Assembly: GCA_963817535.1 (NCBI GenBank)
Contig: CAWFOW010000011.1
Coordinates: 46,754-110,753 of the forward strand
Source: an uncultured Alphaproteobacteria bacterium
Lineage (GTDB): Bacteria; Pseudomonadota; Alphaproteobacteria; MPNO01; DASWLB01
Direction of reading: 5' to 3'
DNA length: 64,000 nt
Under the pieces are notes generated by a model. That model had not been told where the DNA came from, made no database searches, and worked only from the letters and a program-made list of their open reading frames with translations. This document shows, piece by piece, positions 3,891-16,578 of this stretch; the stretch's first letter is position 1; each line of letters starts with the position of its first letter. Made by a program: the position numbers and the translations under genes.

Positions 3891-4357
3891 AGGCGCGCGT
3901 GTCAGCACGTTCTCCGCTTAAAGACTCCGCTGTCCGGTCGCCCGGTTCGCACGAAGTGCTGCTGCCCGCCGGCTGGCCGCGCCCGCGGGGCTACGCCAAC
4001 GGCATCCGCGCGAAAGGCGAGTTCGTCTTCGTCGGCGGAATGGTGGGGTGGGACGCGGCCGGAAATTTCGCCGAAGGCTTCGTCGCCCAGGCACGCCAGG
4101 CGCTGCAGAACGTCCGCGCGGTACTGGCCGAGGGCGGTGCACGGCCCGAGGACGTGGTGCGCCTGACCTGGTACGTGATCGACCTCGACGAATACCGCGC
4201 GAGCCTCGCCGCCCTGGGCGCCGCCTATCGCGAGCTGATGGGCAGCCACTACCCGGCGATGGCATTGGTCCAGGTGGCTGGGCTGGTCGAGCCACGCGCG
4301 CGGCTCGAGATCGAGGCGACGGCGGTGATTCCGGACCGCGCGGAGCGGGCGCGATGA
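3884..4357 (+). CDS. ridA: RidA/YjgF family reactive-intermediate deaminase
   Basis: YjgF/chorismate-mutase-like fold signature (GFVAQARQALQNVRAVLAEGGARPEDVVRLTWYV...IEATAV). Overlaps neighbours at both ends. Confidence 0.75.
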   Translation: MVEARVSARSPLKDSAVRSPGSHEVLLPAGWPRPRGYANGIRAKGEFVFVGGMVGWDAAGNFAEGFVAQARQALQNVRAVLAEGGARPEDVVRLTWYVIDLDEYRASLAALGAAYRELMGSHYPAMALVQVAGLVEPRARLEIEATAVIPDRAERAR

Positions 4358-5169
4358 GCGCTGGTGGCGCGATAGCGACCGCGGCGGCGCCGCCGCCGGT
4401 GATCGTGCTGGACAACGTGTCGGTCGAGTTGTCTGGCGAACGCATCTACAATTCCATCGGATTTGCGGTCCGGCCCGGAGAGTTCCTGTGCATCCTGGGC
4501 CCCTCCGGGTGCGGCAAGTCCACCTGCCTGCGCCTGATGGGAGATCTCTTGCAGGCGAACGGCGGGACCGTGCGCGTCGACGGGCGGACCCCCGCCGAAG
4601 CGTGGGACCAGCTCGCCTACGTGTTCCAGGCGCCGCGCCTTGTGCCGTGGCGCACCGCGCTCGGCAATGTGATGCTGGCGATGGAGCTGCGCTTTGGGCG
4701 GGGTGCCAGGCGCGACATGGAGTCGAAGGGCCGCGCGCTGCTGGACCTTGTCGGGCTCGCCAACGATATCGAGAAATATCCCCGGATGCTTTCGGGCGGC
4801 GAGCGCCAGCGCGTCGCCATCGCCCGTGCCCTGGCGGTCGAGCCGAAGATCGTGCTTATGGACGAGCCGTTTTCGGCGCTGGATCTTAACACGCGCCGCC
4901 GGCTACGCGCCCAGATGATCTCGATCTGGGAGGAGACGGGGAAGACCATCGTCTTTGTCACCCATGACATCGACGAAGCGCTGGTCCTGGCCGACCGGAT
5001 CCTGTTGATGTCGAACAAGCCGACGCGCGTGATCGAGACCATCGAGATTGACCGGCCGCGACCGCGCGACCTGGACGGAACGCCCGAGCTTCGCGCTCAT
5101 CGCGACCATCTGCACCGTTTGTTCCGTCAGCTCGAGCCGGGATCCGAGGAAGAAACCCAACCGGGGTGA
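4354..5169 (+). CDS. ABC transporter ATP-binding protein, NitT/TauT (nitrate/sulfonate/bicarbonate) family
   Basis: Walker A GPSGCGKST, signature LSGGERQRVAIARAL, Walker B IVLMDEPFSALD. Start ATG shares ATGA with the RidA stop. Confidence 0.85.
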   Translation: MSAGGAIATAAAPPPVIVLDNVSVELSGERIYNSIGFAVRPGEFLCILGPSGCGKSTCLRLMGDLLQANGGTVRVDGRTPAEAWDQLAYVFQAPRLVPWRTALGNVMLAMELRFGRGARRDMESKGRALLDLVGLANDIEKYPRMLSGGERQRVAIARALAVEPKIVLMDEPFSALDLNTRRRLRAQMISIWEETGKTIVFVTHDIDEALVLADRILLMSNKPTRVIETIEIDRPRPRDLDGTPELRAHRDHLHRLFRQLEPGSEEETQPG

Positions 5170-5198
5170 GTGGACCCCGAAATACGGAGGCAGACGCA

Positions 5199-6185
5199 AT
5201 GAAGCGAACGATTGTCGGCGCGCTCGGCGCGCTTGCGGTGGCCCTGGTCGCCGCCGGCCCGGCCCTCGCAAAGGAAAGGATCAGCTATGCCTACCTGATC
5301 GATCCCGCCCTGGAGGGCATCTTGTACGGCATCAAGTCAGGCAAGGTGCATTCCGACACGGTCGAACTGGTGGCCACACCGCTGCCGATACCCGCGCTGA
5401 TCCAGTCGACAACGACCAAGCAGTACGACGTGATCATGAACGCCGTGCTGTCGATTCCGCGCGCCCTGGAGAAGGGGCTGAGGATGGAAGTGCTGTCGAC
5501 GGCCCTGCGCTCGGTGCCGAGCGCGGTGAGCGGCGCGGCCTGGGTCAAGAAGGACGGGCCCTACAAGACGCTGGCGGACCTGAAAGGCAAGACGATCGGT
5601 GACACATCGCTGCAATCGACCGGCACCATGTGGACGCGCATTGCCATGTGGAAGAAGCACGGCATTAACGTGATGTACGATAATGGCGACTTCAAATGGG
5701 TGCAGCTTCCGGCCTCGGGCCTTCTTGGCGCGGTGCAGACCGGGCGCATCGACGCAGCGAATCTGATCCACCTTCAGGCGTATGAGGCGCTGAAGTCGGG
5801 CAACTACGTCTCGCTCCTGCACACCGCTCAGGACCTCCACGAAATGTTCGGCGTGCGGCAGGTCTCGGCGGTCAATGTCGGTTATCCCGAGAAGCTCAAC
5901 GCGCGGCCCGATGCGTTCAAGGAGTTCGACCGCATGATCAAGGCCACGGTCGATTATGCCAGTGCCCACACGGCCGAAGTCGGCGAGGCGATTGCGAAGG
6001 AGTTCAAGATCTCGCCCGAGTTCTTCGGCTGGTGGCTTAAGAACTATTCGACGTTTCCCGGTGTGGTAAGCGATGGCGATCTGAAGGCCATGGAAGTGGT
6101 TTGGCAGAACGCGCACGATCTGCACGCGATGGGGACGTTCCCGAAGGCCGAGTCGGTCGTCTGGAAGTACGCGATCCGCGAGTAG
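5199..6185 (+). CDS. ABC transporter substrate-binding protein, NMT1/THI5-like (NitT/TauT family)
   Basis: Signal peptide MKRTIVGALGALAVALVAAGPALA and an SsuA/NMT1-like fold. RBS ggagg upstream. Confidence 0.8.
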   Translation: MKRTIVGALGALAVALVAAGPALAKERISYAYLIDPALEGILYGIKSGKVHSDTVELVATPLPIPALIQSTTTKQYDVIMNAVLSIPRALEKGLRMEVLSTALRSVPSAVSGAAWVKKDGPYKTLADLKGKTIGDTSLQSTGTMWTRIAMWKKHGINVMYDNGDFKWVQLPASGLLGAVQTGRIDAANLIHLQAYEALKSGNYVSLLHTAQDLHEMFGVRQVSAVNVGYPEKLNARPDAFKEFDRMIKATVDYASAHTAEVGEAIAKEFKISPEFFGWWLKNYSTFPGVVSDGDLKAMEVVWQNAHDLHAMGTFPKAESVVWKYAIRE

Positions 6186-6194
6186 ACTGGCCCC

Positions 6195-6992
6195 GTGGCG
6201 CGCGCGCTCGAAAACACCCGGAGCAGGTGGACCGCGGGCCGGCGTTCCCGGTTGGCGGCCCACCTGTTCACGCTCGCCGCGCTCGCGGTGTGGCAGCTTT
6301 ATTCGATGACGGTAGAGCCGTTCGTGATGCCCGGCCCGTGGCCGGTGGCGGAACGGCTCTACCAGTTCCTTACGACGTGGAGCCTCGCCAAGCACACGTT
6401 CTACTCGTTCGGGCATATATTTGCGGCAATGGCGATTTCGTTCCTGGTGGGGAGCGGGCTCGCGTTCCTTGCCCATTATGCTCCGGCCTTCCGTCTTGCC
6501 GTGCATGGGCGGCTGAGCCCGTTCCTGAACTCGTTCTCCGGGATCGGCTGGACGCTGCTCGCCATCGTCTGGTTCGGGGTGAACGACCTGACGGTCATTT
6601 TCGCGATCAGCGTGGTGCTGACGCCCTTCGCCATCATCAACATGCGTGAGGGGCTCGAGACGCTGGATTCCGAGCTGTTGGAGATGTCGGCGAGCTTCAC
6701 CCGCCGGCGTGGCCGGGAGTTCACGCGCATCGTGCTTCCGGCTCTGATGCCCTTCATTTTCGCGACGGCGCGGATCAGCTTCGGCGTGTCGTGGAAGGTG
6801 ACGCTGGCTGCCGAGCTGTTCGGCGGGCGCACCGGGCTTGGCTACCTGTTCAACCTGGCGCGTCAGGATTTCGACATGGCGCTGATCCTGGTTGTGATCG
6901 TGGTCATCATCGCCTTCGTCTACGGCACCGACAGGCTGGTCTTCGCACCGCTCCAGGCTCGGCTCGGCCGCCACCACGAGGCGGAACCGTGA
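6195..6992 (+). CDS. ABC transporter permease (NitT/TauT family)
   Basis: Multi-TM protein with the EAA-like loop typical of BPD permeases. GTG start. Confidence 0.8.
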   Translation: MARALENTRSRWTAGRRSRLAAHLFTLAALAVWQLYSMTVEPFVMPGPWPVAERLYQFLTTWSLAKHTFYSFGHIFAAMAISFLVGSGLAFLAHYAPAFRLAVHGRLSPFLNSFSGIGWTLLAIVWFGVNDLTVIFAISVVLTPFAIINMREGLETLDSELLEMSASFTRRRGREFTRIVLPALMPFIFATARISFGVSWKVTLAAELFGGRTGLGYLFNLARQDFDMALILVVIVVIIAFVYGTDRLVFAPLQARLGRHHEAEP

Positions 6993-7774
6993 CCGCCATC
7001 GCCAGCTCCACGCCGCGCCCGCCCCGGCGCAGGCCGTTCACCCAGCGCGCCATCGCGGATGGGCTGGTGATCGCCGTGCTCGTCGGCTGGTGGCTGGCCG
7101 CGCGCCATCTGCCGGAATTCATCCTTCCTGGTCCGGTGAGTATCGCGAAGACCCTGGCGGCGCTGTTCGTCACCCCGTCGCTCCTGGTCGACACGGCCAC
7201 AAGCGCTTTGCGGGTGATCGTGGCGGTGGTCGTGTCCGTCGCACTGGGTGGCGTGCTCGCAATTCTGCCCTATCGTTGGCCGGTGCTCGACGGCATCGTG
7301 CACGACCGCATCAAGCCGTTCCTCAACTCGTTCCCATCGGTGGGCTGGGCGATCCTCGCGATGGTGTGGTTCGGCACGTCATCCATCTCGGTGATTATCG
7401 TCGAGGTGATGATCCTGACGCCGTTCTGCCTGGTGAACGTGTCGGAAGGCATTCGCGAGCTCGACGATGAGCTGCTCGAAATGGGAGAAAGCTTCACCCG
7501 CAGCCGGCCGCGCGTGATGCTCAAGATCGTGGTGCCGCTTTTGTTGCCCTATGCGGTTTCGGCGGTGCGCATCGCCTACGGCGTGGCGTGGAAGATCGCG
7601 CTGGTTGCCGAGCTGTTCGGAGCGACCAGCGGCCTGGGCTATGTGATGCTCAAGGCGGAGATCGTGTCGGACGCCGCGACGGTTTACGCCACCTGCTTCG
7701 CCATCGTGATCCTGTTCCTTGCCGGCGAGAAGCTGGTGATCGATCCCCTGTCGCGCGTGGTGGCCTACAAATGA
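6989..7774 (+). CDS. ABC transporter permease (NitT/TauT family), second subunit
   Basis: Paralog of the preceding permease (shared ...FLNSF...GW..LA.VWFG... pattern). GTG start overlaps the upstream stop (GTGA). Confidence 0.8.
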   Translation: MTAIASSTPRPPRRRPFTQRAIADGLVIAVLVGWWLAARHLPEFILPGPVSIAKTLAALFVTPSLLVDTATSALRVIVAVVVSVALGGVLAILPYRWPVLDGIVHDRIKPFLNSFPSVGWAILAMVWFGTSSISVIIVEVMILTPFCLVNVSEGIRELDDELLEMGESFTRSRPRVMLKIVVPLLLPYAVSAVRIAYGVAWKIALVAELFGATSGLGYVMLKAEIVSDAATVYATCFAIVILFLAGEKLVIDPLSRVVAYK

Positions 7775-7796
7775 ACAGCTACCCCGAAGGAGAGAC

Positions 7797-9425
7797 GTGA
7801 TGATCACCGCGGATTTGCTGCTGAAGAACGGCAACGTGATGACGATTGATGCGATGTCAACGCGGACCGACGCTGTCGCCATCGCGAACGGGCGCATCGT
7901 CGCGCTCGGCAAGGAGGCACAGGAGCTGGCCGGACCCAACACCCAGATCATCGATCTGGGCGGCCGCACGGCCGTTCCCGGGCTGTTCGACAGCCATATC
8001 CACACGATGATGGGCGGGCAGAACGAGCTCGCGGTTTCGCTCGAGGATGCGAAATCCGTCGCCGACGTGCAGAAGGCCTTCGCAGCCCGCGCGCAAGGCG
8101 CTGCGCCCGGGAACTGGATCCTGGGAGGCAGCGGCTGGCACGAAAGCCAGCTCGCCGAGGGGCGCATGCCGCACCGGAAAGAGCTCGACGCAGTAACGCC
8201 GAATAACCCCGTCTTCCTGCGCAGGGGCGGTCACGTCGCGGTCGCGAACAGCGCGGCCCTGAAAATTGCGGGTATCACGAAGGATACGCCCGACCCGCAT
8301 GACGGTGTGATCGGGCGCGATGCAGGCACCAACGAGCCGAACGGCATGCTGGTCGAGCGCGCGGCCTTCACCCAAGTGCTGAAGCACGTGCCGCGCCCGA
8401 CCCGTGGCGACCTGGTCGAGGGGTTGAAGAGATACACCGCGCGCCTCAATAGTCGCGGCATCACGGCGACGTTGGAGCCCGGCATCAGCCTGGACGAGAT
8501 CGCCGCCTACATGGAGCTGTGGCGCCAGGGGAAGATGACCACGCGGGCGCGTATCCTCCAGCGCATCGCATGTGCGGACGATGTGTCGGGCCTCACCCAG
8601 GTGCTGGCACCCGAGTTCGGCGACGACTGGCTGCGCATCGGCGGCTTCAAGTTCATGGCCGACGGCGGCGTGGAAGCGGCCTTTCTGCGCGAGCCCTATC
8701 GCGTGATCGAGGGCGAGCAGAACGACCCCGATTTCGTGGGGAAGATGGTGCTGCCGCCTGGCGGTCTCGACGAGCTGCGCGAGATGCTGATGGTTGCGGC
8801 CGCACAGGGTTGGCAGGTGCAGATCCACATGGTGGGCGACGCTACGATCGACACCATCGTCGGGCTGGTCGAGGAGGTGGCAAGGAAATATCCGGTCGGC
8901 GATATGCGCTGGACCATGATGCACGTCTTCCTGCCGACCGACGAAGCATTGACCAAGATGAAGCGGCTCGGCCTCCGCGCGACGGTGCAGGACCATCCCG
9001 TTAAGCTTGGTCACAACATGCTGCGCTACTGGGGCGAGGAGCGGGCGTCGCGCTCGATCCCGGTGCGGTCGATCCTCGCGGCGGGCATTCCCACCGGCGG
9101 CGGCACCGATGCCCCCGTTGTCGACTGGAATCCGTTCGAATCAATCTGGTGGATGACCACGCGCAAGGTCTTCGCCCAGGGCGGGGTGCGGGTACTCGGC
9201 CCCGACGAGGCAATCGGCCGCGAGGAGGCGCTGCGCCTCTACACGCTGGGCAGCGCCGAGACCTGCTTCATGGAGAGCATCGTGGGTACGATCGAGCCCG
9301 GCAAGCTCGCCGACATTGCGGTGCTCGATGCCGACCCGATGACGGTCGCCGACGATGCGCTGCGCGACATCAAAGCGGCGCTGACCGTCGTCGGCGGCCG
9401 GATCGTTCATCGCGCGGGGGTCTGA
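7797..9425 (+). CDS. Amidohydrolase family protein (Amidohydrolase_3, metal-dependent hydrolase)
   Basis: 542 aa. N-terminal ...IDLGGRTAVPGLFDSHIHTMMGG metal-binding HxH motif and C-terminal GGTDAPV... typical of the Amidohydro_3 family. RBS aaggagag. Confidence 0.8.
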   Translation: MMITADLLLKNGNVMTIDAMSTRTDAVAIANGRIVALGKEAQELAGPNTQIIDLGGRTAVPGLFDSHIHTMMGGQNELAVSLEDAKSVADVQKAFAARAQGAAPGNWILGGSGWHESQLAEGRMPHRKELDAVTPNNPVFLRRGGHVAVANSAALKIAGITKDTPDPHDGVIGRDAGTNEPNGMLVERAAFTQVLKHVPRPTRGDLVEGLKRYTARLNSRGITATLEPGISLDEIAAYMELWRQGKMTTRARILQRIACADDVSGLTQVLAPEFGDDWLRIGGFKFMADGGVEAAFLREPYRVIEGEQNDPDFVGKMVLPPGGLDELREMLMVAAAQGWQVQIHMVGDATIDTIVGLVEEVARKYPVGDMRWTMMHVFLPTDEALTKMKRLGLRATVQDHPVKLGHNMLRYWGEERASRSIPVRSILAAGIPTGGGTDAPVVDWNPFESIWWMTTRKVFAQGGVRVLGPDEAIGREEALRLYTLGSAETCFMESIVGTIEPGKLADIAVLDADPMTVADDALRDIKAALTVVGGRIVHRAGV

Positions 9426-9426
9426 C

Positions 9427-9897
9427 GTGGCGGGGCAGGGGGCCATCCTGTCGGCGCACGGTCGCAACCATGGCGACCTGGTGGCGGCGCGCGACATTGC
9501 ACGCCTGCCGGCGGCGACCGACAACTACCCGCTGCTGACATTCCGCGAAATCTACGCCACCGTCGGAGTCATCGGACTTCGCATCGGCGAGGAGGCGCGG
9601 GCGCTCGACGGCCGGCCCGTGCGGGTGCGCGGGTACATGGCGCCGCCGGTCGCTGACCGCGACAGCTTCTTCATGCTGACGCGGACCCCGTTCGTTACCT
9701 GTCCGTTCTGCGACCCGGCGGCGAGCTGGCCCGATGACGTGGTACTGGCCTGCCTGGAAAAGGACAGTGCCTTCGTCGATCCGACCCTCGCGGTCGAGCT
9801 GGTCGGCGAGCTCGATATCGGTCCGAAGCGCGACCCTCGGACGGGTACGACGCGCTACGTGCGTCTCGTCGATGCGCGCTGGCAGCTGGTGTCTTGA
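9427..9897 (+). CDS. Hypothetical protein, 156 aa, co-transcribed with the amidohydrolase
   Basis: GTG start 2 nt after the amidohydrolase stop. Contains a CPFCD motif. No family recognised. Confidence 0.4.
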   Translation: MAGQGAILSAHGRNHGDLVAARDIARLPAATDNYPLLTFREIYATVGVIGLRIGEEARALDGRPVRVRGYMAPPVADRDSFFMLTRTPFVTCPFCDPAASWPDDVVLACLEKDSAFVDPTLAVELVGELDIGPKRDPRTGTTRYVRLVDARWQLVS

Positions 9898-9966
9898 TGG
9901 TGCGCGCCGCAATCCGCGCGGGGTGAATCTATTCAAAATAAACAGCCTTATTCTTCAAGAACACCA

Positions 9967-10854
9967 ATGACAAATTCTCAAAATCATTTTTATGTCGATT
10001 CGGAAACTGGATCACTCAGCGACGTGTTGCTGTGTGCTCCAGAATATTATGAATGGGTGCCGCACAACGCGGTCACGAGGCGGTCGATGCAGTCCCTCGG
10101 CAGCTTCGACATGCAGGCCGCGCGGGCTCAATTCGCCGAGTTCGAGCAGGCCTTCGCCGAGGCGGGCGTGAACCGTCATTATCTGATGCCGGACGCCTGC
10201 CTTCCCGATCAGCTCTACACGCGCGATACGAGCCTCGTCACGCCGTGGGGTCCGGTCGTGCTGCAGCCGATGCAGCCCCGCCGCCGCGGCGAGGTCGGGC
10301 CGGTGGTCGATTTCTTTGACCGGGCGGGGGTGGCGCGATGGCGCTGGGCGACCGCGGGCTCGGTCGAAGGCGGCGATATCCATATGATCCGGCCCGGCCT
10401 TCTGGTGATCGGCTATTCGGGCGAACGGACCACGATCGAGGGCGCCCAGCAGGTCGGAGGCTGGTTCCGAGACGCCGGGTGGAAGGTCCGCTACGAGAGC
10501 TTTCCCGAGCATTTTCTCCATTTCGACCTGCTCTTTGCCATGGTTGGCGAGGCGTTGGCGGTCGCCTGCATCGAGGCGCTGTCCGAAGACTATCTTGCCT
10601 GGCTCAAACAGAAGAAAATCGACGTCATTCCCGTGTCCTATGGCGAGGCCATGCGCCTCGGCTGCAACCCCCTTTCGCTCGGCGACAGGCGAGTGATCTC
10701 GTCGGCCACGTGCCGCGAGCTGAATCAGCGGCTTCGGGCTGCCGGAATCCGGGTCTACGACCCCGACATCTCGGTGTTCACCGGGGGCGGCGGAGGGCCC
10801 CGCTGCATGTCGATGGCCCTGCGCCGCGAGCCGCTGGCCCGCCCAAGCAATTAG
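9967..10854 (+). CDS. Amidinotransferase-superfamily hydrolase (dimethylarginine dimethylaminohydrolase / arginine deiminase-like)
   Basis: 295 aa. C-terminal catalytic-Cys motif DISVFTGGGGGPRCMSMAL matches the DDAH/ADI GGxxCMS signature. The first ~100 nt are markedly AT-rich. Confidence 0.7.
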   Translation: MTNSQNHFYVDSETGSLSDVLLCAPEYYEWVPHNAVTRRSMQSLGSFDMQAARAQFAEFEQAFAEAGVNRHYLMPDACLPDQLYTRDTSLVTPWGPVVLQPMQPRRRGEVGPVVDFFDRAGVARWRWATAGSVEGGDIHMIRPGLLVIGYSGERTTIEGAQQVGGWFRDAGWKVRYESFPEHFLHFDLLFAMVGEALAVACIEALSEDYLAWLKQKKIDVIPVSYGEAMRLGCNPLSLGDRRVISSATCRELNQRLRAAGIRVYDPDISVFTGGGGGPRCMSMALRREPLARPSN

Positions 10855-10931
10855 CTGTACGCCGTAGGGAAAATCGGTGTTGGTTAACAGGAACGAATAG
10901 GAACGTCGGGCGCGGCAAAGTCGTGGTATAA

Positions 10932-11978
10932 ATGATCGTCAAGACGTCGGATGTCGAACAATATCGACCTGACGAGAGGCTGAGGCGCGTGAGTAAGATT
11001 CGAATCGACCAATATGTGTCGGGGCCGTCGCCCGATGCGACGATAAGTGTCGCGTCGCCACATGTGCTTGCCGAGGCCGCGGCGATGTGGAAGTTCGCCC
11101 GCCGGGCCGGTTTCGCCGCGGAGCTCAAGGCGCTGCAGCGGCCGCGCGTCGCGCGGTCGGTGACGGCGGCGGTGCTCGACTGGGAGCTGATCGGGCTGGC
11201 GGCGGCTTCCGTCGTCTGGTTGGGCTGGTGGGCGGTGCCGGTCGCGCTGCTGGTCATCGGCAACCGCCAGCGCGCCCTCGGCAACCTGCTGCACGACGCC
11301 TCGCACTGGACGATGGATGGCAACCGGTCCCGGGCGACGGTGCTCGCCAACCTCCTGTTCTGCTGGCCGCTGACCGTGTCGATGGCGGTCTACCGGGCGG
11401 ATCACACCCGGCATCACAAATGCCTCGGCGATCCGGCCGACGACCCCGACTTCATTCACGATCCCGACCGCCTCGCGCGCGGCTGGGTGCGTGTCTGGTT
11501 CGACCAGGTCGGCTCGTGGCGGGGCCTGCGCTCGTCCGTGCTCGGCAATCTCGACCGGATGGAGGGCGCGATGCTGGCCGGCGTGGCCGCATGGTGGTGC
11601 GTCGTTCTCGGTGCGGCGGCCGCCGCGGCGGGACCCTCGGCGGCCTTGGTCTTCCTCGGCCTCTGGGTCGCGGCGCGGGCGACCGTGTTCCATGCGGTCA
11701 CCTGCTTTCGCGAAATCTCCGACCATGTCGGGCTGGTGCCCGGTACGCTGATCGGGTTCAGCCGGAACCATCCGTTCGGCGGGGTGCTGGGCCAACTCGT
11801 GCATCCGCACAACAACGGGTACCACCTGCTGCATCACCTGGACCCCGGCATCCCGTTTCACGCCCTTCCCCGGGCCCACCGGCTGCTGCTGCAATGGCCG
11901 GACTACGCAACGGCCGAACACTGCACGTCCTATTTCGGGGGCGAGGGGAGCGCGGTCCGCTCCTGGGTGTGCCGTTAG
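10932..11978 (+). CDS. Fatty acid desaturase family membrane protein (three His-box di-iron enzyme)
   Basis: His boxes HDASH, HTRHH, HNNGYHLLHH plus hydrophobic TM segments. Confidence 0.75.
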   Translation: MIVKTSDVEQYRPDERLRRVSKIRIDQYVSGPSPDATISVASPHVLAEAAAMWKFARRAGFAAELKALQRPRVARSVTAAVLDWELIGLAAASVVWLGWWAVPVALLVIGNRQRALGNLLHDASHWTMDGNRSRATVLANLLFCWPLTVSMAVYRADHTRHHKCLGDPADDPDFIHDPDRLARGWVRVWFDQVGSWRGLRSSVLGNLDRMEGAMLAGVAAWWCVVLGAAAAAAGPSAALVFLGLWVAARATVFHAVTCFREISDHVGLVPGTLIGFSRNHPFGGVLGQLVHPHNNGYHLLHHLDPGIPFHALPRAHRLLLQWPDYATAEHCTSYFGGEGSAVRSWVCR

Positions 11979-11996
11979 CCGTGGCGTCCGCCGTCG

Positions 11997-12257
11997 TCAC
12001 CGGCGCGCCGCGCGCCAGTCCTCGACCATGGCGGCGAGGGAGGCAAGGGTGTCGAAGCGCTGCGGATCGAACTCGATCTCGGTGAAGTCGACGCCGAACG
12101 CGGTCTCGAGGAATGTGACCAGCTTTATTACCGCCAGCAAGTCGAGGCGGCCGGTCGAGATCAGGGAGGTGGCGTCGGCGAACGGCGCCGAGTCGTTCTG
12201 ATCGCGCAGGAGCTCGGTAAGGTAGGTCCTGATCCTTACCCGATCGTCCTCAGCCAT
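11997..12257 (-). CDS. DltC-like aminoacyl/acyl carrier protein homolog with Leu in place of the phosphopantetheinyl-Ser
   Basis: 86 aa. Four-helix carrier pattern ...ADATSLISTGRLDLLAVIKLVTFLETAFGVDFTEIEF. Start overlaps the MBOAT 3' end by ~22 nt. Confidence 0.6.
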   Translation of the reverse strand: MAEDDRVRIRTYLTELLRDQNDSAPFADATSLISTGRLDLLAVIKLVTFLETAFGVDFTEIEFDPQRFDTLASLAAMVEDWRAARR

Positions 12258-13762
12258 TGATCCATCCCCAGGACATTGAGCAAGAATTCGAGGTGCCAGC
12301 CGAGCGGCGCGTGCGGGAACGGCCCGTCCAGAAACGATAGCAGGCAGAAGAACGTCAACACACCCACCGACGGCAACATCTGGCGCCGCCACCACGGAGC
12401 GTGCGGATCCGCCCGCCGCGGCATGAGCTGGGAGAGGACGATCCCGCCCGCGAGCAGCAGGCAATAGAATGCATAGGTCTGCGACTGGAGCAGACTTTGC
12501 CACATGCCCTGGCTCGCCAGGTCGGGGAGCCTGCGGAATATCTGATGGGACAGGTAGTTGCCGACGCCCGCCGCCATGAACGTGGCGAAGGCCAGCCGCA
12601 GCCGCGGGTGCCGTTTGAAGCAGCGGAGGAACGCCGGGTAGAAGTAGATATGAACCAGCGCTTCCTTGAAATAGTAGTCGTACCGGTTCCAGAACTCGGC
12701 GATGCTGCGTGATGACAATGGTCGGTAAGTATTGCGCAATAGTCTAAATCCCGCCAAACGCGCGAGGGCGACGGCCTTGTGGCCCCAGATCGCGAGGACC
12801 AGCAATCGCTCCGGGAAATTGAGCAGAATTCCCCAGAGCCCGGCCGGACCCGGTCCCTTGCCGGTATCGAGGAAGTGCACGAACGTCTGCGACAGCGGCG
12901 CGATGCCGGCCAGGCCGTAGAAGACGTGGCGCATCAGCCACAGGACGACCGTCAGGACGAACGCCCAGCACAAAAGCTTGAGGCCGGAGAGCTGGGTGGC
13001 CGCCAGTTCCTCGGCCGAGCCGGCCTCGACGCTCCGCCACGACGCGGCACCGCGACCGACCGGCTCGATCACCCAGGGGGCGAAGAAGGGGTGGAAGGCG
13101 GCAAAATGGCGGATCGTCGGCTGGGGCTGGCGGCGCTGCTGATCGAGCAGCGCGTAGCAGAGGAACCAGATGAAGGCCGCCAGCACGGCGGTCAGGCTCC
13201 ACAGCGCCACCTCCGGCAGGCCATGCAGCAGGTTGGCGCAGGCGGCCGCGATCATGGCGAAGCAGGCCAGGTGGACGGCGAGGATCGGCCGCCGCCCGAC
13301 CGGATGGTCGCGCCACTGCCGGGCGAGCCAGAGCACCGCGAGCGCGAGGGGCGCTGCGGCCAGCAGGCTGCCGGCGCGCACCCAGCGTGCCTCGAACATG
13401 CTCTGCAGACCCTGCTGCGCGAGGACCATGGCCTCGAGGCCCGGCGAGAACCAATCCATGTGGATCAGCAGCATGCCGGCACCGCCAACTGCCGCGATCA
13501 AGAAGCGGTGACGGCCGGCCACCCCCGCGACGGACGCGATCAGGGAGACGGTCAGGGCCAGCCTCAGCGAATAGCTGCCCATTAGGTTCAGCAGCACCGC
13601 GAAGGCCAGGAACAGGACCAGCTTGCCGGGGATCGTCTGTGCAAAGGCGACCAGCGCGTCGTCGGTCTCGATCGGCGGCATCCGCCATTTCCAGGGCGGC
13701 TTGCCGAGCCCGGCCTGACGCGCCAGAAGGCCGACGCGGCCGATGAGGGGCGTGGGCGGCAT
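12236..13762 (-). CDS. MBOAT family membrane O-acyltransferase (DltB/AlgI-like)
   Basis: 508 aa, multi-TM. MBOAT signature RSIAEFWNRYDYYFKEALVHIYFYP with the conserved His. Start ATG overlaps the upstream stop (TGATG). Confidence 0.8.
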   Translation of the reverse strand: MPPTPLIGRVGLLARQAGLGKPPWKWRMPPIETDDALVAFAQTIPGKLVLFLAFAVLLNLMGSYSLRLALTVSLIASVAGVAGRHRFLIAAVGGAGMLLIHMDWFSPGLEAMVLAQQGLQSMFEARWVRAGSLLAAAPLALAVLWLARQWRDHPVGRRPILAVHLACFAMIAAACANLLHGLPEVALWSLTAVLAAFIWFLCYALLDQQRRQPQPTIRHFAAFHPFFAPWVIEPVGRGAASWRSVEAGSAEELAATQLSGLKLLCWAFVLTVVLWLMRHVFYGLAGIAPLSQTFVHFLDTGKGPGPAGLWGILLNFPERLLVLAIWGHKAVALARLAGFRLLRNTYRPLSSRSIAEFWNRYDYYFKEALVHIYFYPAFLRCFKRHPRLRLAFATFMAAGVGNYLSHQIFRRLPDLASQGMWQSLLQSQTYAFYCLLLAGGIVLSQLMPRRADPHAPWWRRQMLPSVGVLTFFCLLSFLDGPFPHAPLGWHLEFLLNVLGMDQWLRTIG

Positions 13763-15342
13763 CAGGTGCCTCCGCCGGCCTCGAGCCAATCGAGCAGGGC
13801 GCGCCGGTCAAGCTTGCCGCTGGTCGTCAGCGGCATCGCCGCCAGGATATGAATGGCTGCGGGAACCATGTGCGGCGGAACGCGGCTCCTCAGGGCGTCC
13901 CGCAGCGCCGGTGCAGGGCCGGCCTCGCCGCCGACAAAGCCGACAATGCCCTGGGCGACGCCGTCCGCCACCGGCCACGCGACCGCGGCCACATCTTCGA
14001 CACCGGCCACCACGCGCAGATGCGCCTCGATATCCTCGAGCTCGACCCGGTGCCCGTGGATCTTGATTTGATGGTCAAGCCGGCCGAGGTGGTGAAAACG
14101 ACCGGTTTCGTCCCTCAGCGCAAGGTCGCCGGTCAGGTACCACCGGCGCCCGTCCAGTATGGGGAAACGCTCCGCGGTCAGGTCCGGCGCGCCGAGATAG
14201 CCGATGGCGAGCTGCGCGCCGGCGATGGCGAGCTCGCCAGCCACGTTGTTCGCGACGGGCCGCCGGTCCGGCCCCAGAACCGCCAGCGCGCTGCCGGGGT
14301 GCGGCGTGCCGATCGCCACCACGTCGCGGCCGGGCGTGAGGGCCGGCGTGGCGCCCGGCGCGATCCGCTCGCCGCAGCAATCGACCGTGGCCTCGGTCGG
14401 GCCGTAGAAATTGTCGATCGCGCTGTTGGGCGCGGCCGCCTGCCAGGCGCGCACCGAGGCGAGGGGCAGCGGCTCGCCGCCAAAGGAGGAGTAGCGCAGG
14501 CTGGGTAAGGAACCCGGCGCCAGGGAGCGCGTCTGCCGCATCCAGGTGATCGCGGCCGGGGCCGAGCCCCATACGGTCAGGCGGCGGTCGCGAATGAACC
14601 GGGCGGGCGACACCTGGCTGACCGCCGGAACCACGTGGAGCGACGCGCCGGCCTGCCACGGCAAGAAGATTTCGCCCAGGGACGGATCGAACGACAGCTC
14701 GGTGAATTGGGAGGCGCGGTCCTGCTCGGTCAGCTCTTTGCGGGCCTGCAGCGCGGACAGGTACGCGGCAACCGCGCCGGCGGACACCATGACGCCCTTG
14801 GGCGTGCCGGTGGTTCCCGAGGTGAAGATGACATAGAGCATGTGATCATCGGCCATGTCGGCGGGCGGCTCGAGAGGCTGCGGCTCCGGCAGCGCATCCA
14901 GCGCCAGCACAGAAAGCCCGAGACGATCCGTCCGCAACGCGGCGGCGGCGGAGCCATCGGGCACGAAAGCCAGATGCAGCCGGTCGAGGGTCGTGGGTGT
15001 CAGGCGGCGCACGCCATTGCCGTCGGCGATCACGGCGTCGATTCCGGCGAGGTCGAGCACCGTCTCGATGCGTGCCGCTGGCCAACGCAGCCCGAGGGGC
15101 ACGTAGGTCGCGCCGGCCCAGGCGGCGGCCAGCACCGCCTCCATCGCGACCAGGCTGCGCGAGGCGAGGATGCCGATCCGGCGTCCGGCGCCGTAGCTGC
15201 GGTCGTGCAGCGCAGCAGCCAGACGGCCGCCGCGCCGGGCGAGCTCGCCATAGGACAGGGTGACGCCATCGGCGTCGAGCGCCAGCCGCTCCGGCGCCAG
15301 CCGCGCGCGTTCATAGACTGGCCAGCACGGATTCGTCGTCAT
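13762..15342 (-). CDS. Stand-alone NRPS-type adenylation enzyme (DltA-like aminoacyl-AMP ligase)
   Basis: 526 aa. A-domain cores FTSGTTGTPKGV (A3), FDPSLGEIF (A4), NFYGPTEATV (A5), YLTGDLA (A7), GRLDHQIKIHGHRVELEDIE (A8), PLTTSGKLDRRAL (A10). Confidence 0.85.
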   Translation of the reverse strand: MTTNPCWPVYERARLAPERLALDADGVTLSYGELARRGGRLAAALHDRSYGAGRRIGILASRSLVAMEAVLAAAWAGATYVPLGLRWPAARIETVLDLAGIDAVIADGNGVRRLTPTTLDRLHLAFVPDGSAAAALRTDRLGLSVLALDALPEPQPLEPPADMADDHMLYVIFTSGTTGTPKGVMVSAGAVAAYLSALQARKELTEQDRASQFTELSFDPSLGEIFLPWQAGASLHVVPAVSQVSPARFIRDRRLTVWGSAPAAITWMRQTRSLAPGSLPSLRYSSFGGEPLPLASVRAWQAAAPNSAIDNFYGPTEATVDCCGERIAPGATPALTPGRDVVAIGTPHPGSALAVLGPDRRPVANNVAGELAIAGAQLAIGYLGAPDLTAERFPILDGRRWYLTGDLALRDETGRFHHLGRLDHQIKIHGHRVELEDIEAHLRVVAGVEDVAAVAWPVADGVAQGIVGFVGGEAGPAPALRDALRSRVPPHMVPAAIHILAAMPLTTSGKLDRRALLDWLEAGGGT

Positions 15343-15696: not shown

Positions 15697-15808
15697 AAGC
15701 GGGCCGGCGCGATTCCGCGCGAGCGGAAGATGCACTAGGTCATTTACCCATAAATGGGATTCCCATTTTTTGGGAAGGGTGATTCAGTCTCCTCGAAGGG
15801 AGACCGAG

Positions 15809-16578
15809 ATGGCACGTTTCGATCTGACGGATTTCGAGTGGTCTGTGATCCAGCCACTGCTGCCGAACAAGCCGCGCGGTGTGCCGCGTGTTGACGACCG
15901 CCGGGTGTTGAACGGGATTTTCTGGCGGCTTCGCACCGGCGCGCCGTGGGCCGACATTCCCGAGCGTTACGGTCCGCACACGACCTGCGTGAACCGCTTC
16001 AACCGCTGGCGCAGGGCGGGGGTGTGGGATCGGCTTCTCGAGGCGGTTTCCAAGGCTTACGAGGGCGACATCCAGATGATCAACTCCTCGATCATCCGCG
16101 TGCATCAGCACGCCGCCAACGCCCAAAAAAAGACGACCGATCCCGTTGCATGGGTCGCTCGCGCGGCGGGCTGACGACCAAGATCCATGCGCTGGTCGAT
16201 GCGAACGGCCTGCCGATCGTCCTCAAGCTGACCGAAGGCCAGGCCCATGACGGGCGCAGTGCCGAAGACATGTTCGGCTCTCTTGAAGCCGGCGACATCC
16301 TGCTCGCCGACCGGGCCTACGACAGCGACGCGCTCCGGCGAACCCTCGCCATGCGCGGCGCGTGGGGCAACATCAAGCCCATGCCCGGCCGCACCAACAT
16401 CCCAGCCTTCAGCCCGTTTCTTTACCGCTACCGCAACCTCGTCGAGCGCTTCTTCAACAAGCTCAAGCACTTTCGAGCCGTCGCCACCCGCTACGACAAA
16501 AGACCCGAAAACTACCTCGCATCCGTCAAGCTGGCCGCAGCCCGAATATGGATGCGATTTAATGAGTCGATGACCTAG
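15809..16578 (+). CDS. IS5/IS427-group transposase OrfAB (OrfA 15809-16174; OrfB frame continues to 16578 after programmed -1 frameshift)
   Basis: OrfA begins MARFDLTDFEWSVIQPLLP (DUF4096-type N-terminus). OrfB carries the DDE domain ...RGGLTTKIHALVDANGLPI...LLADRAYDSD... Confidence 0.8.
16126..16132 (+). other. Programmed -1 ribosomal frameshift slippery heptamer A_AAA_AAG
   Basis: In the OrfA frame the codons are CAA AAA AAG. OrfB is in the -1 frame relative to OrfA. Confidence 0.7.

Follow-up and report, generated by a model that had tools for sequence, protein, structure and literature searches.

A deep AT-rich island, apparently derived in place, spans the start of a pentein-superfamily gene in a GC-rich alphaproteobacterial locus

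Results and Discussion

An AT-rich island covers the leader and the first thirty codons of a pentein gene

We analyzed a 64,000-nucleotide (nt) stretch of DNA from an uncultured alphaproteobacterium (assembly GCA_963817535.1, contig CAWFOW010000011.1; hereafter the window, in whose coordinates all positions are given) and focused on an AT-rich island at the start of a gene for a pentein-superfamily (DDAH/ADI/ArgZ-like) enzyme. The gene, delimited with the help of Pfam, AlphaFold, Foldseek, and homolog lengths, lies at 9967–10854 on the + strand and encodes 295 amino acids (aa); it is the sole long open reading frame (ORF) of the locus with a coding-type GC content at third codon positions (GC3). 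The preceding gene ends 69 nt before its ATG. The AT-rich core of the island extends over 133 nt, from 9924 to 10056, and comprises two parts on the + strand: a G-poor leader of 43 nt (9924–9966), which lies directly 5′ of the start codon and has no Shine-Dalgarno (SD) motif, and codons 1–30 of the pentein gene (9967–10056), in which A/T-ending rare codons predominate and the conserved family residues are retained.

A first-pass annotation, made by a model from the letters of the window, had described a compositional step inside this gene, and the step survived windowed GC and codon-usage analysis. Among 130-nt segments, whose GC content averaged 0.657 over the window (sd 0.047), 9924–10053 stood out with 0.354 (z = −6.5). 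The island was the GC minimum of the whole 64 kb whether segments of 60, 100, 130, or 160 nt were used; the next-lowest 130-nt segment stood at 0.485. The 3′ edge is abrupt, with GC at 0.70 again by 10060–10089, just as the annotation had claimed. The interval that it gave, 9898–10060, begins too early: the stretch that it quoted maps to 9931–9996 within a real island, but the first 26 nt (9898–9923) are GC-rich (0.67–0.73 in 30-nt segments). The leader has a GC content of 0.30, with 3 G versus 10 C among its 43 nt, and the G fraction in 91-nt segments bottoms at the island (0.10 versus 0.335 ± 0.047 window-wide). Taken as a whole, the island contains roughly as much A as T and as much G as C; GC skew is negative and AT skew is close to zero.

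The coding part of the island is equally extreme. The 25-codon block that starts at codon 5 had a GC3 of 0.32, the lowest among 16,725 blocks from 51 coding-type ORFs (mean 0.847, sd 0.081). Over the first 87 coding nt, GC was 0.38 compared to 0.67 in the gene body, and GC3 was 0.37 compared to 0.85. An index resembling the codon adaptation index fell to 0.30 for codons 2–30, versus 0.67 for the remainder of the gene. Rare codons in codons 1–30 include ACA, TCT, ACT, GGA, TCA, TTG, GCT, and CCA, each of which makes up at most 0.08 of its synonymous class (many 0.03–0.08).

We ruled out an assembly artifact, as the tract agrees across three assemblies: it is identical in the 1.48-Mb ENA contig L086 (99.77% identity to the window over 20.8 kb), and it is also carried by the Logan assembly L002 (ERR11594398; 99.87% over 3.9 kb), with a single G>A at 9997, on a GANTC site. 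A repeated or mobile element was rejected as well, since a search for the 71-nt core that tolerated 3 mismatches located a single copy in the window. Nor did we find direct repeats of the kind that an insertion would leave: an 18-nt pair (9901–9918 and 10054–10071) is only 72% identical, which we attribute to chance, and its second copy is ancestral coding sequence that is also present in the closest relative (locus L001, see below).

The gene encodes a member of a separate pentein subfamily

The 295-aa protein matched two Pfam profiles above gathering, PF02274 ADI (66.1 bits, cut-off 22.8) and PF19420 DDAH_eukar (61.2 bits, cut-off 23). Every DDAH, ADI, and ArgZ equivalog of NCBIfam scored far under its cut-off; the scores were 66.6 versus 300 (NF045659), 53.9 versus 340 (NF045660), and 45.5 versus 450 (NF045658) for DDAH proper, and 53.3 versus 489 (TIGR01078) and 48.6 versus 450 (NF052232) for arginine deiminase (ArcA)/ArgZ. 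No amidinotransferase model was among the Pfam or NCBIfam matches. Sequence matches in the PDB were weak (E ∼1e-9 to P. aeruginosa DDAH and ArgZ).

The Cys-His-Glu signature that had been noted in the first reading was borne out: E134, H185, and C280 line up in a HMMER alignment with the Glu, His, and Cys that form the catalytic triad of P. aeruginosa DDAH. C280, H185, E134, and D87 were invariant across an alignment of 24 family members.

An AlphaFold model built on 24 homologs reached a pLDDT of 90.5 and a pTM of 0.89, and strand 16–22 was confidently predicted as part of the fold. In a Foldseek search against the PDB, this predicted structure matched AGAT, NnhA, ADI, DDAH, and ArgZ at TM scores of 0.74–0.82 (E ∼1e-17). 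The likeness to the amidinotransferases 1jdw and 6u1r is one of fold only (TMq 0.77–0.79, 14–16% identity, 340–360 aa versus 295 aa). The window protein thus shares the pentein fold with P. aeruginosa DDAH (1h70/3rhy), ArgZ/AgrE (6juy/6lrf, the cyanobacterial arginine dihydrolase), arginine deiminase, NnhA (9azg, the 2-nitroimidazole nitrohydrolase), AGAT, and SxtG, but has only 14–24% sequence identity to them. Subfamily members with names in the match lists were all alphaproteobacteria or alphaproteobacterial metagenome-assembled genomes. Judged from these comparisons, the 295-aa protein is a member of the pentein superfamily and belongs to a separate subfamily.

The AT-rich codons appear to be translated from ATG 9967

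We compared the N-terminus with a homolog set that consisted of the 120 best matches from 5.8 billion proteins. Nearly all of them are 282–315 aa long, and they cover 94–99% of the query, aligning from about residue 8. Ten N-terminal positions show conservation of 90% or more across the family (S12, E13, G15, L17, L21, L22, C23, P25, Y28, and W30), and the window gene keeps all ten. Residues 11–40 were modeled at a pLDDT of 82–96 and would comprise strand 16–22 and helix 35–44. Finally, the ratio of nonsynonymous to synonymous divergence (dN/dS) against L001 was ∼0.09 for codons 5–30 and 0.10 for the rest of the gene. Because the residues are conserved, the N-terminus is ordered in the predicted fold, and dN/dS is 0.09, the AT-rich segment is probably translated and under ordinary protein-level constraint. 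We infer that ATG 9967 is the true start and is used in vivo.

The start region lacks recognizable initiation signals and is predicted to be nearly unstructured

We did not find GGAG, GAGG, or AGGA between −20 and −4 of ATG 9967. L001 is likewise without an SD-like motif and has an upstream AAGAAC in common with the window gene; by a lenient criterion, an SD-like motif precedes 42 of 58 other orthologs and many window genes too. No sigma-70-like −35/−10 pair was detected upstream of ATG 9967 at default or relaxed thresholds, and the best such match of the region, from the relaxed scan, is antisense (10076→10046, 9/12, 19-nt spacer). We also detected no intrinsic terminator in a scan between the upstream gene and the pentein gene, and no Rfam match at E ≤ 1 across 9600–11100. 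The first-pass annotation had offered a specialized AT-rich regulatory or translation-initiation region as one explanation; the evidence favors this proposal, except for its promoter part, given the lack of sigma-70-like hexamers upstream of the ATG. When the island was locally aligned to the window's other intergenic AT-rich regions, the MarR promoter region included, no alignment scored above shuffles. A GC-rich stem-loop just past the stop of the upstream gene (9903–9922, +; minimum free energy [MFE] −13.6 kcal/mol) has no T-run and is not terminator-like; with z = −0.62 it is unremarkable, and we dismissed it as a special element.

The region from −40 to +50 had a predicted MFE of −7.2 kcal/mol versus −34.3 kcal/mol for the gene body, and was the least structured + strand 90-mer of the window (90-mers: −32.7 ± 6.6). 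The same region of the orthologs gave −27.3 ± 6.5, with −14.7 for the least structured one. Immediately downstream, a lineage-specific RNA hairpin of 14 bp is predicted at 10007–10042 (+41 to +76, + strand). Its MFE is −19.0 kcal/mol (z = −4.5), none of 200 shuffles was equally stable, and a z of −4.5 or lower is reached by just 0.13% of the 46-nt segments in the 64 kb. The hairpin arms are built largely from window-specific codons (ACT GGA TCA CTC AGC … TGT GCT CCA G). We considered a conserved RNA structure in the coding region and rejected it: 60 orthologs had a mean z of −0.2, a mean of 8.8 of the 14 pairs was possible in them, and RNAalifold gave no consensus.

The AT-richness is derived in the window lineage

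The closest relative of the gene is the L001 locus of GCA_038116835.1 (protein P0002), which is 83% identical overall. When the 120 best homologs were ranked by identity, P0002 came first both for residues 8–31 (0.75) and for residues 32–295 (0.82). Codon-aligned nucleotide identity to L001 was 0.69–0.80 in codons 1–33 and 0.73–0.91 elsewhere, and third-position identity was equal in the AT-rich part and the gene body. Differences between strong (G/C) and weak (A/T) bases had a direction: in codons 5–30, the window has A/T at 14 of them and the reverse occurs at 0, compared to 55 and 69 in the rest of the gene. At the codons concerned, the third base is G/C in 53–92% of 60 other orthologs, which makes the A/T states derived in the window lineage. 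The window gene and L001 also have derived traits in common inside the AT-rich part, namely Phe at residue 8 (Trp in 52 of the 60 others) and near-identical DNA, TTTTTxTGTCGATTCGGA.

We then compared orthologous loci, anchored on the DSETG motif (61 in all, L001 plus 60 genome loci at 46–60% identity). For the equivalent 130 nt, z was −0.89 at the median and −2.73 at the lowest, and the GC deficit of the 5′ coding region was 0.05 at the median and at most 0.13, versus 0.29 in the window gene. A comparable dip was seen in none of the 61 loci; hence the AT-rich 5′ end is not a conserved feature of the whole family, and the outcome that the first-pass annotation had named as speaking against a mosaic, an AT-rich 5′ end in orthologs too, did not occur. 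A mild dip is family-wide, and the window lineage has an extreme version of it. As judged from the alignments, the AT-richness is derived and lineage-specific and lies mainly at synonymous sites of a translated, conserved N-terminus.

To put the depth of the island in context, we scanned 0.9 Mb of related genomes and found 3 segments of 130 nt whose GC dropped by 0.30 or more from the locus mean and 11 with a drop of 0.25 or more. None of the 11 clearly reaches into coding sequence; one overlaps an over-extended longest frame with an uncertain start, and a second shares 5 nt with an ORF. Between genes, then, AT-rich islands this deep are nothing out of the ordinary; what is unusual here is the penetration of 87–90 nt into conserved coding sequence. 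The three comparator islands with a drop of at least 0.30 lie in L076 (3241–3370), L030 (7465–7594), and L071 (2007–2136). The L076 island closely follows the orthologous pentein gene. Neither it nor the L030 island touches a coding-type ORF, and that of L071 touches only an over-extended frame. A background of GC3 blocks from 643 comparator ORFs proved unusable, as over-extended ORFs overlap their neighbors out of frame. A scan of JGI metagenomes for closer relatives found none.

An unstructured initiation region is the favored explanation

We favor, with roughly even confidence, the view that the island is where translation of an SD-less gene initiates, an extreme case of a GC-poor and unstructured start region that evolved in place. 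The absence of an SD motif, the 69-nt gap, and the lack of a recognized promoter or terminator together suggest that translation of the gene begins at an internal site of a polycistronic, GC-rich mRNA or else on a transcript of its own that is weakly defined. Under such circumstances, selection may have swapped G/C for A/T, both in the leader and synonymously within codons 1–30, and may also have pushed a few conservative amino-acid changes toward A/T-rich codons. The outcome would be a region of ∼85 nt (−43 to +40) that is G-poor and essentially unstructured, on which a 30S subunit could bind without an SD helix. Codons that were unable to go AT-rich (the D-V-L-L-C segment) would be held in the local hairpin at +41 to +76, which would keep these G-rich codons from pairing back onto the start region. 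We infer translation initiation as the selective agent and the hairpin as an insulator. The lineage-specific gene context may explain why new expression signals were needed.

Several features fit this explanation: the extreme composition, from −43 to +90, is centered on the start codon, predicted structure is lower there than in any other + strand 90-mer, no SD motif precedes the gene, the A/T changes are derived and run in one direction while the encoded peptide is conserved, the orthologs have a milder dip, and G is depleted beyond C in the leader, the strand asymmetry that is expected of a constraint at the RNA level. SD-independent initiation on unstructured A/U-rich leaders is known from ribosomal protein S1-dependent enhancers and “standby” sites. 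The window leader is similar in that it is A-rich, G-poor, without an SD, and very low in predicted structure; it differs in that the unstructured zone would extend deep into conserved coding sequence. Goodman et al. and Bentele et al. are both said to have found, in 2013, that N-terminal enrichment of rare codons raises expression by lowering structure. In genomes rich in GC, the stretch right after the start codon is especially poor in GC and folds weakly (Gu, Zhou & Wilke 2010, PMC2816680). Like that trend, the dip in GC and structure in the window is centered on the start codon, lies mainly at synonymous sites, and uses rare A/T-ending codons. Unlike it, the amplitude (GC3 of 0.32 versus 0.85, z = −6.5) and the length (to +90) are far above the average effect, and the island is unique among the 51 ORFs, is not found in the 61 orthologs, and comes with a newly made hairpin at +41 to +76.

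Several points weigh against an initiation region. The G/C asymmetry of the leader is statistically weak. The dip runs to +90, past both the first 30-nt segments in which the published trend is measured and a ribosome footprint. L001, which is also SD-less, dips weakly (GC 0.55–0.58; MFE −25), so the loss of an SD does not by itself force recoding. In addition, the 90-mer from −40 to +50 had a z of +1.1 against its own dinucleotide shuffles, meaning that its low structure follows from composition with no added sign of selection on folding. The significance of the hairpin is post hoc (∼1–3%, as estimated from the scan of 46-nt segments).

Alternative explanations

The main rival to the initiation region is a function at the level of DNA, which we regard as possible but on balance unlikely. 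The island would then act as a MucR/Ros- or H-NS-type silencer site, as a methylation-sensitive (GANTC) or otherwise atypical promoter, or as an antisense promoter, and would control the pentein gene and the GntB-like gene downstream (see below). At 65% AT over ∼130 bp at a gene start, in a genome of 34% AT, the island is within the range of MucR1-bound fragments of Sinorhizobium fredii, which are 54–85% AT (genome average 36.9%) and recruit MucR1 less as GC rises (PMC9410896). Named homologs of the gene all come from the alphaproteobacteria, the class in which MucR is conserved. The near equality of A and T and of G and C over the whole island is what a duplex-level property would produce, the dip exceeds a ribosome site in length, and the best sigma-70-like match is the antisense one. 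Known targets of MucR/Ros and of other xenogeneic silencers resemble the island in being far richer in AT than the genome as a whole across 100–200 bp at a gene start, but they are horizontally acquired AT-rich islands (PMC9410896, PMC7710501), whereas the window tract is a derived recoding of a native, vertically related segment. The AT content is therefore that of a silencer target and the origin is not foreign: the tract arose in place, within a gene of native composition. Other AT-rich intergenic regions of the window have no motif in common with the island, its A-tracts are unphased, and there is no sigma-70-like promoter upstream of the ATG.

The island also holds two GANTC (CcrM-type) sites, at 9925–9929 and 9997–10001 (no strand assigned). 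Two or more sites occur in only 3.3% of 133-nt segments, but two are just marginally above the expectation from local composition (an estimated 0.44). Over the whole window, GANTC is under-represented (143 observed versus 203 expected). When we compared the window with L002, all five differences (at 9139, 9566, 9997, 10722, and 11001) fell on GANTC sites, which make up ∼1.2% of the 3.9 kb compared. Such a pattern resembles what systematic miscalling of bases at CcrM-type m6A sites would produce; if that is the cause, GANTC is methylated in the organism and the apparent D11N of L002 is an artifact.

A broader proposal, which we put forward tentatively and consider less likely again, is that the island is a regulatory module written into synonymous sites, either an AT-rich, doubly GANTC-marked silencer or methylation switch, or a translational gate made of rare codons and the hairpin. 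The pentein enzyme would then be kept tightly off until needed, and the adjacent GntB-like hydroxylase might be controlled too. In that case, the pentein, GntB-like, adenylation-domain, carrier-protein, and 517-aa genes (see below) may make or modify an arginine-derived metabolite.

We think it improbable that the island is a neutral by-product without function, left by local A/T-biased mutation or by relaxed 5′ codon selection. Synonymous divergence from L001 is about twice as high in codons 5–30 as in the rest of the gene (2.12 versus 0.98, the former value being saturated and based on 26 codons), and the intergenic islands of similar depth in related genomes, ∼3 per 0.9 Mb, would also be in keeping with a neutral origin. 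However, the tract is sharply bounded with the start codon at its center, is unchanged between strains that have 45 other differences over 20.8 kb, and bears no strand-specific C>T signature; transcription-coupled deamination in particular was ruled out, as the skews do not fit. At most one of the 11 comparably AT-rich comparator segments overlaps a coding-type ORF, and that one as an over-extended longest frame. Moreover, the same substitutions that made the tract AT-rich create the 14-bp hairpin.

It is more improbable still that the gene really starts at Met41 and that the AT-rich stretch is a decaying former N-terminus, now a 5′ untranslated region. An internal GAGG is followed after 6 nt by the ATG of Met41 (10077–10089, +; the ATG is at 10087), and in the public gene calls of two other assemblies of the organism, L002 and L086, the gene starts there, giving 255-aa products (P0001 and P0121). 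P. aeruginosa DDAH, at 254 aa, has a similar length, and its alignment begins at residue 41. The ArgZ alignment, on the other hand, begins at residue 20, and the reading frame of the N-terminal segment is intact, at a dN/dS of 0.09 in codons 5–30 and with the near-invariant family residues all present. The homolog lengths and coverage described above, and the confidence with which residues 11–40 were modeled, also argue against Met41: its product would lose the predicted strand 16–22, most of helix 35–44, and the near-invariant N-terminal residues. The Met41 start of the public calls is probably a mis-annotation.

Lastly, the suggestion of the first-pass annotation that the N-terminus is a mosaic, recombined from a low-GC donor, is one that we give almost no credence, for although the compositional step within the gene is abrupt and a context that differs from that of all homologs implies rearrangement nearby, separate comparison of N-terminus and body led to the same nearest relative without phylogenetic discordance, nucleotide and third-position identity to L001 did not drop, the changes were directional and in place, the derived features in common with L001 sit inside the AT-rich part, and the 120 best matches included no low-GC homolog with a better N-terminal match.

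Implications of an in-place recoded start

The island is best explained as an unusually strong case of a known class, the GC-poor start region, and does not by itself constitute a new kind of system. If it is an initiation region, it offers a clean natural example in which selection at the nucleotide level overwrote synonymous sites, taking GC3 from ∼85% to ∼35% over thirty codons in one lineage, and in which the N-terminus of a pentein enzyme would have stayed under normal purifying selection throughout the recoding. It also bears on annotation: gene finders trained on GC-frame signals would have skipped the true start in L002 and L086 and reported a 255-aa product that lacks a structural strand, and it is probable that gene calls of other GC-rich genomes mis-annotate AT-rich starts of a similar kind. 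For expression in GC-rich hosts, the arrangement suggests a design in which an A/U-rich, G-poor leader and early codons are followed by an insulating hairpin.

Genomic neighborhood

The pentein gene follows, on the + strand, genes for an ABC ATPase, an NMT1-type binding protein, two permeases, an Amidohydro_3 protein (7797–9425), and a 156-aa protein (9427–9897), which together occupy 4354–9897 (Pfam, NCBIfam, and the L086 gene calls). This agrees with the amidohydrolase and ABC importer that the first reading had placed ahead of the gene. Further upstream on the same strand, MarR, a benzoate-CoA-ligase-family enzyme, and RidA precede the NMT1-type importer. The Amidohydro_3 and 156-aa genes are probably translationally coupled because their stop and start overlap (9425/9427). 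The 156-aa protein had no Pfam or NCBIfam match and contains a C-x2-C motif (TCPFCDP).

We asked whether the neighbors of the pentein gene, upstream or downstream, are conserved and found that they recur in none of 80 homologous loci. The guanidino- or amide-compound utilization route that the first reading had drawn from the upstream importer thus lacks conserved synteny. In three homolog loci whose gene calls were inspected, PotABCD-type transporter genes were present in all, LysR in two, and creatininase and Rieske genes in one (Vineibacter).

Downstream of the pentein gene, on the + strand, lies a gene for a membrane protein of the FA_desaturase fold (10932–11978; candidate starts at 10932, 10990, and 11085, the last being the public call). 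It matched PF00487 at 1.2e-28 and is distantly GntB-like (NF041365 GntB, 6.4e-37, 127.6 bits, below the cut-off of 380). GntB is the arginine gamma-hydroxylase of guanitoxin biosynthesis. In the AT-poorer intergenic region before this gene (10889–10930), we noticed by eye a tandem GGAACG-N5-GGAACG with CGTG ∼17 nt later, an arrangement that resembles ECF/EcfG-type promoters (GGAAC-N16-17-CGTT). Convergent to the desaturase-fold gene are genes for a carrier protein (∼11997–12257) with a weak match to OlsHI ACP, a 517-aa protein (12236–13789) without a Pfam or NCBIfam match, and a stand-alone amino-acid adenylation domain (13762–15342; TIGR01733, 329 bits, above cut-off). The genes from 10932 to 15342 may form a small biosynthetic cluster beside the pentein gene, with a GntB-like membrane di-iron hydroxylase.

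Among 60-mers, the one at 1667–1726, between a divergent OYE/flavoenzyme gene (200–1663, −) and the MarR gene, has the second-lowest GC content in the window (0.35). Local alignment against shuffles revealed no similarity between it and the island at 9924–10056, and it is probably the operator or promoter of the upstream operon.

An insertion sequence (IS) element with a DUF4096 + DDE_Tnp_1 transposase (∼15809–16578; a 256-aa call on L086) and a low-GC left end (15727–15800) separates the NRPS-like genes from a block of NMT1/DctP binding-protein genes. Beyond it, 16700–41700 is a dense catabolic region that encodes several NMT1-type and DctP binding proteins, an acyl-CoA dehydrogenase, FAD monooxygenases, and thiolases, together with a ChsH2-like OB-fold protein, a family III CoA-transferase, a LigXa-like Rieske oxygenase, HpaB, and IclR and GntR regulators.

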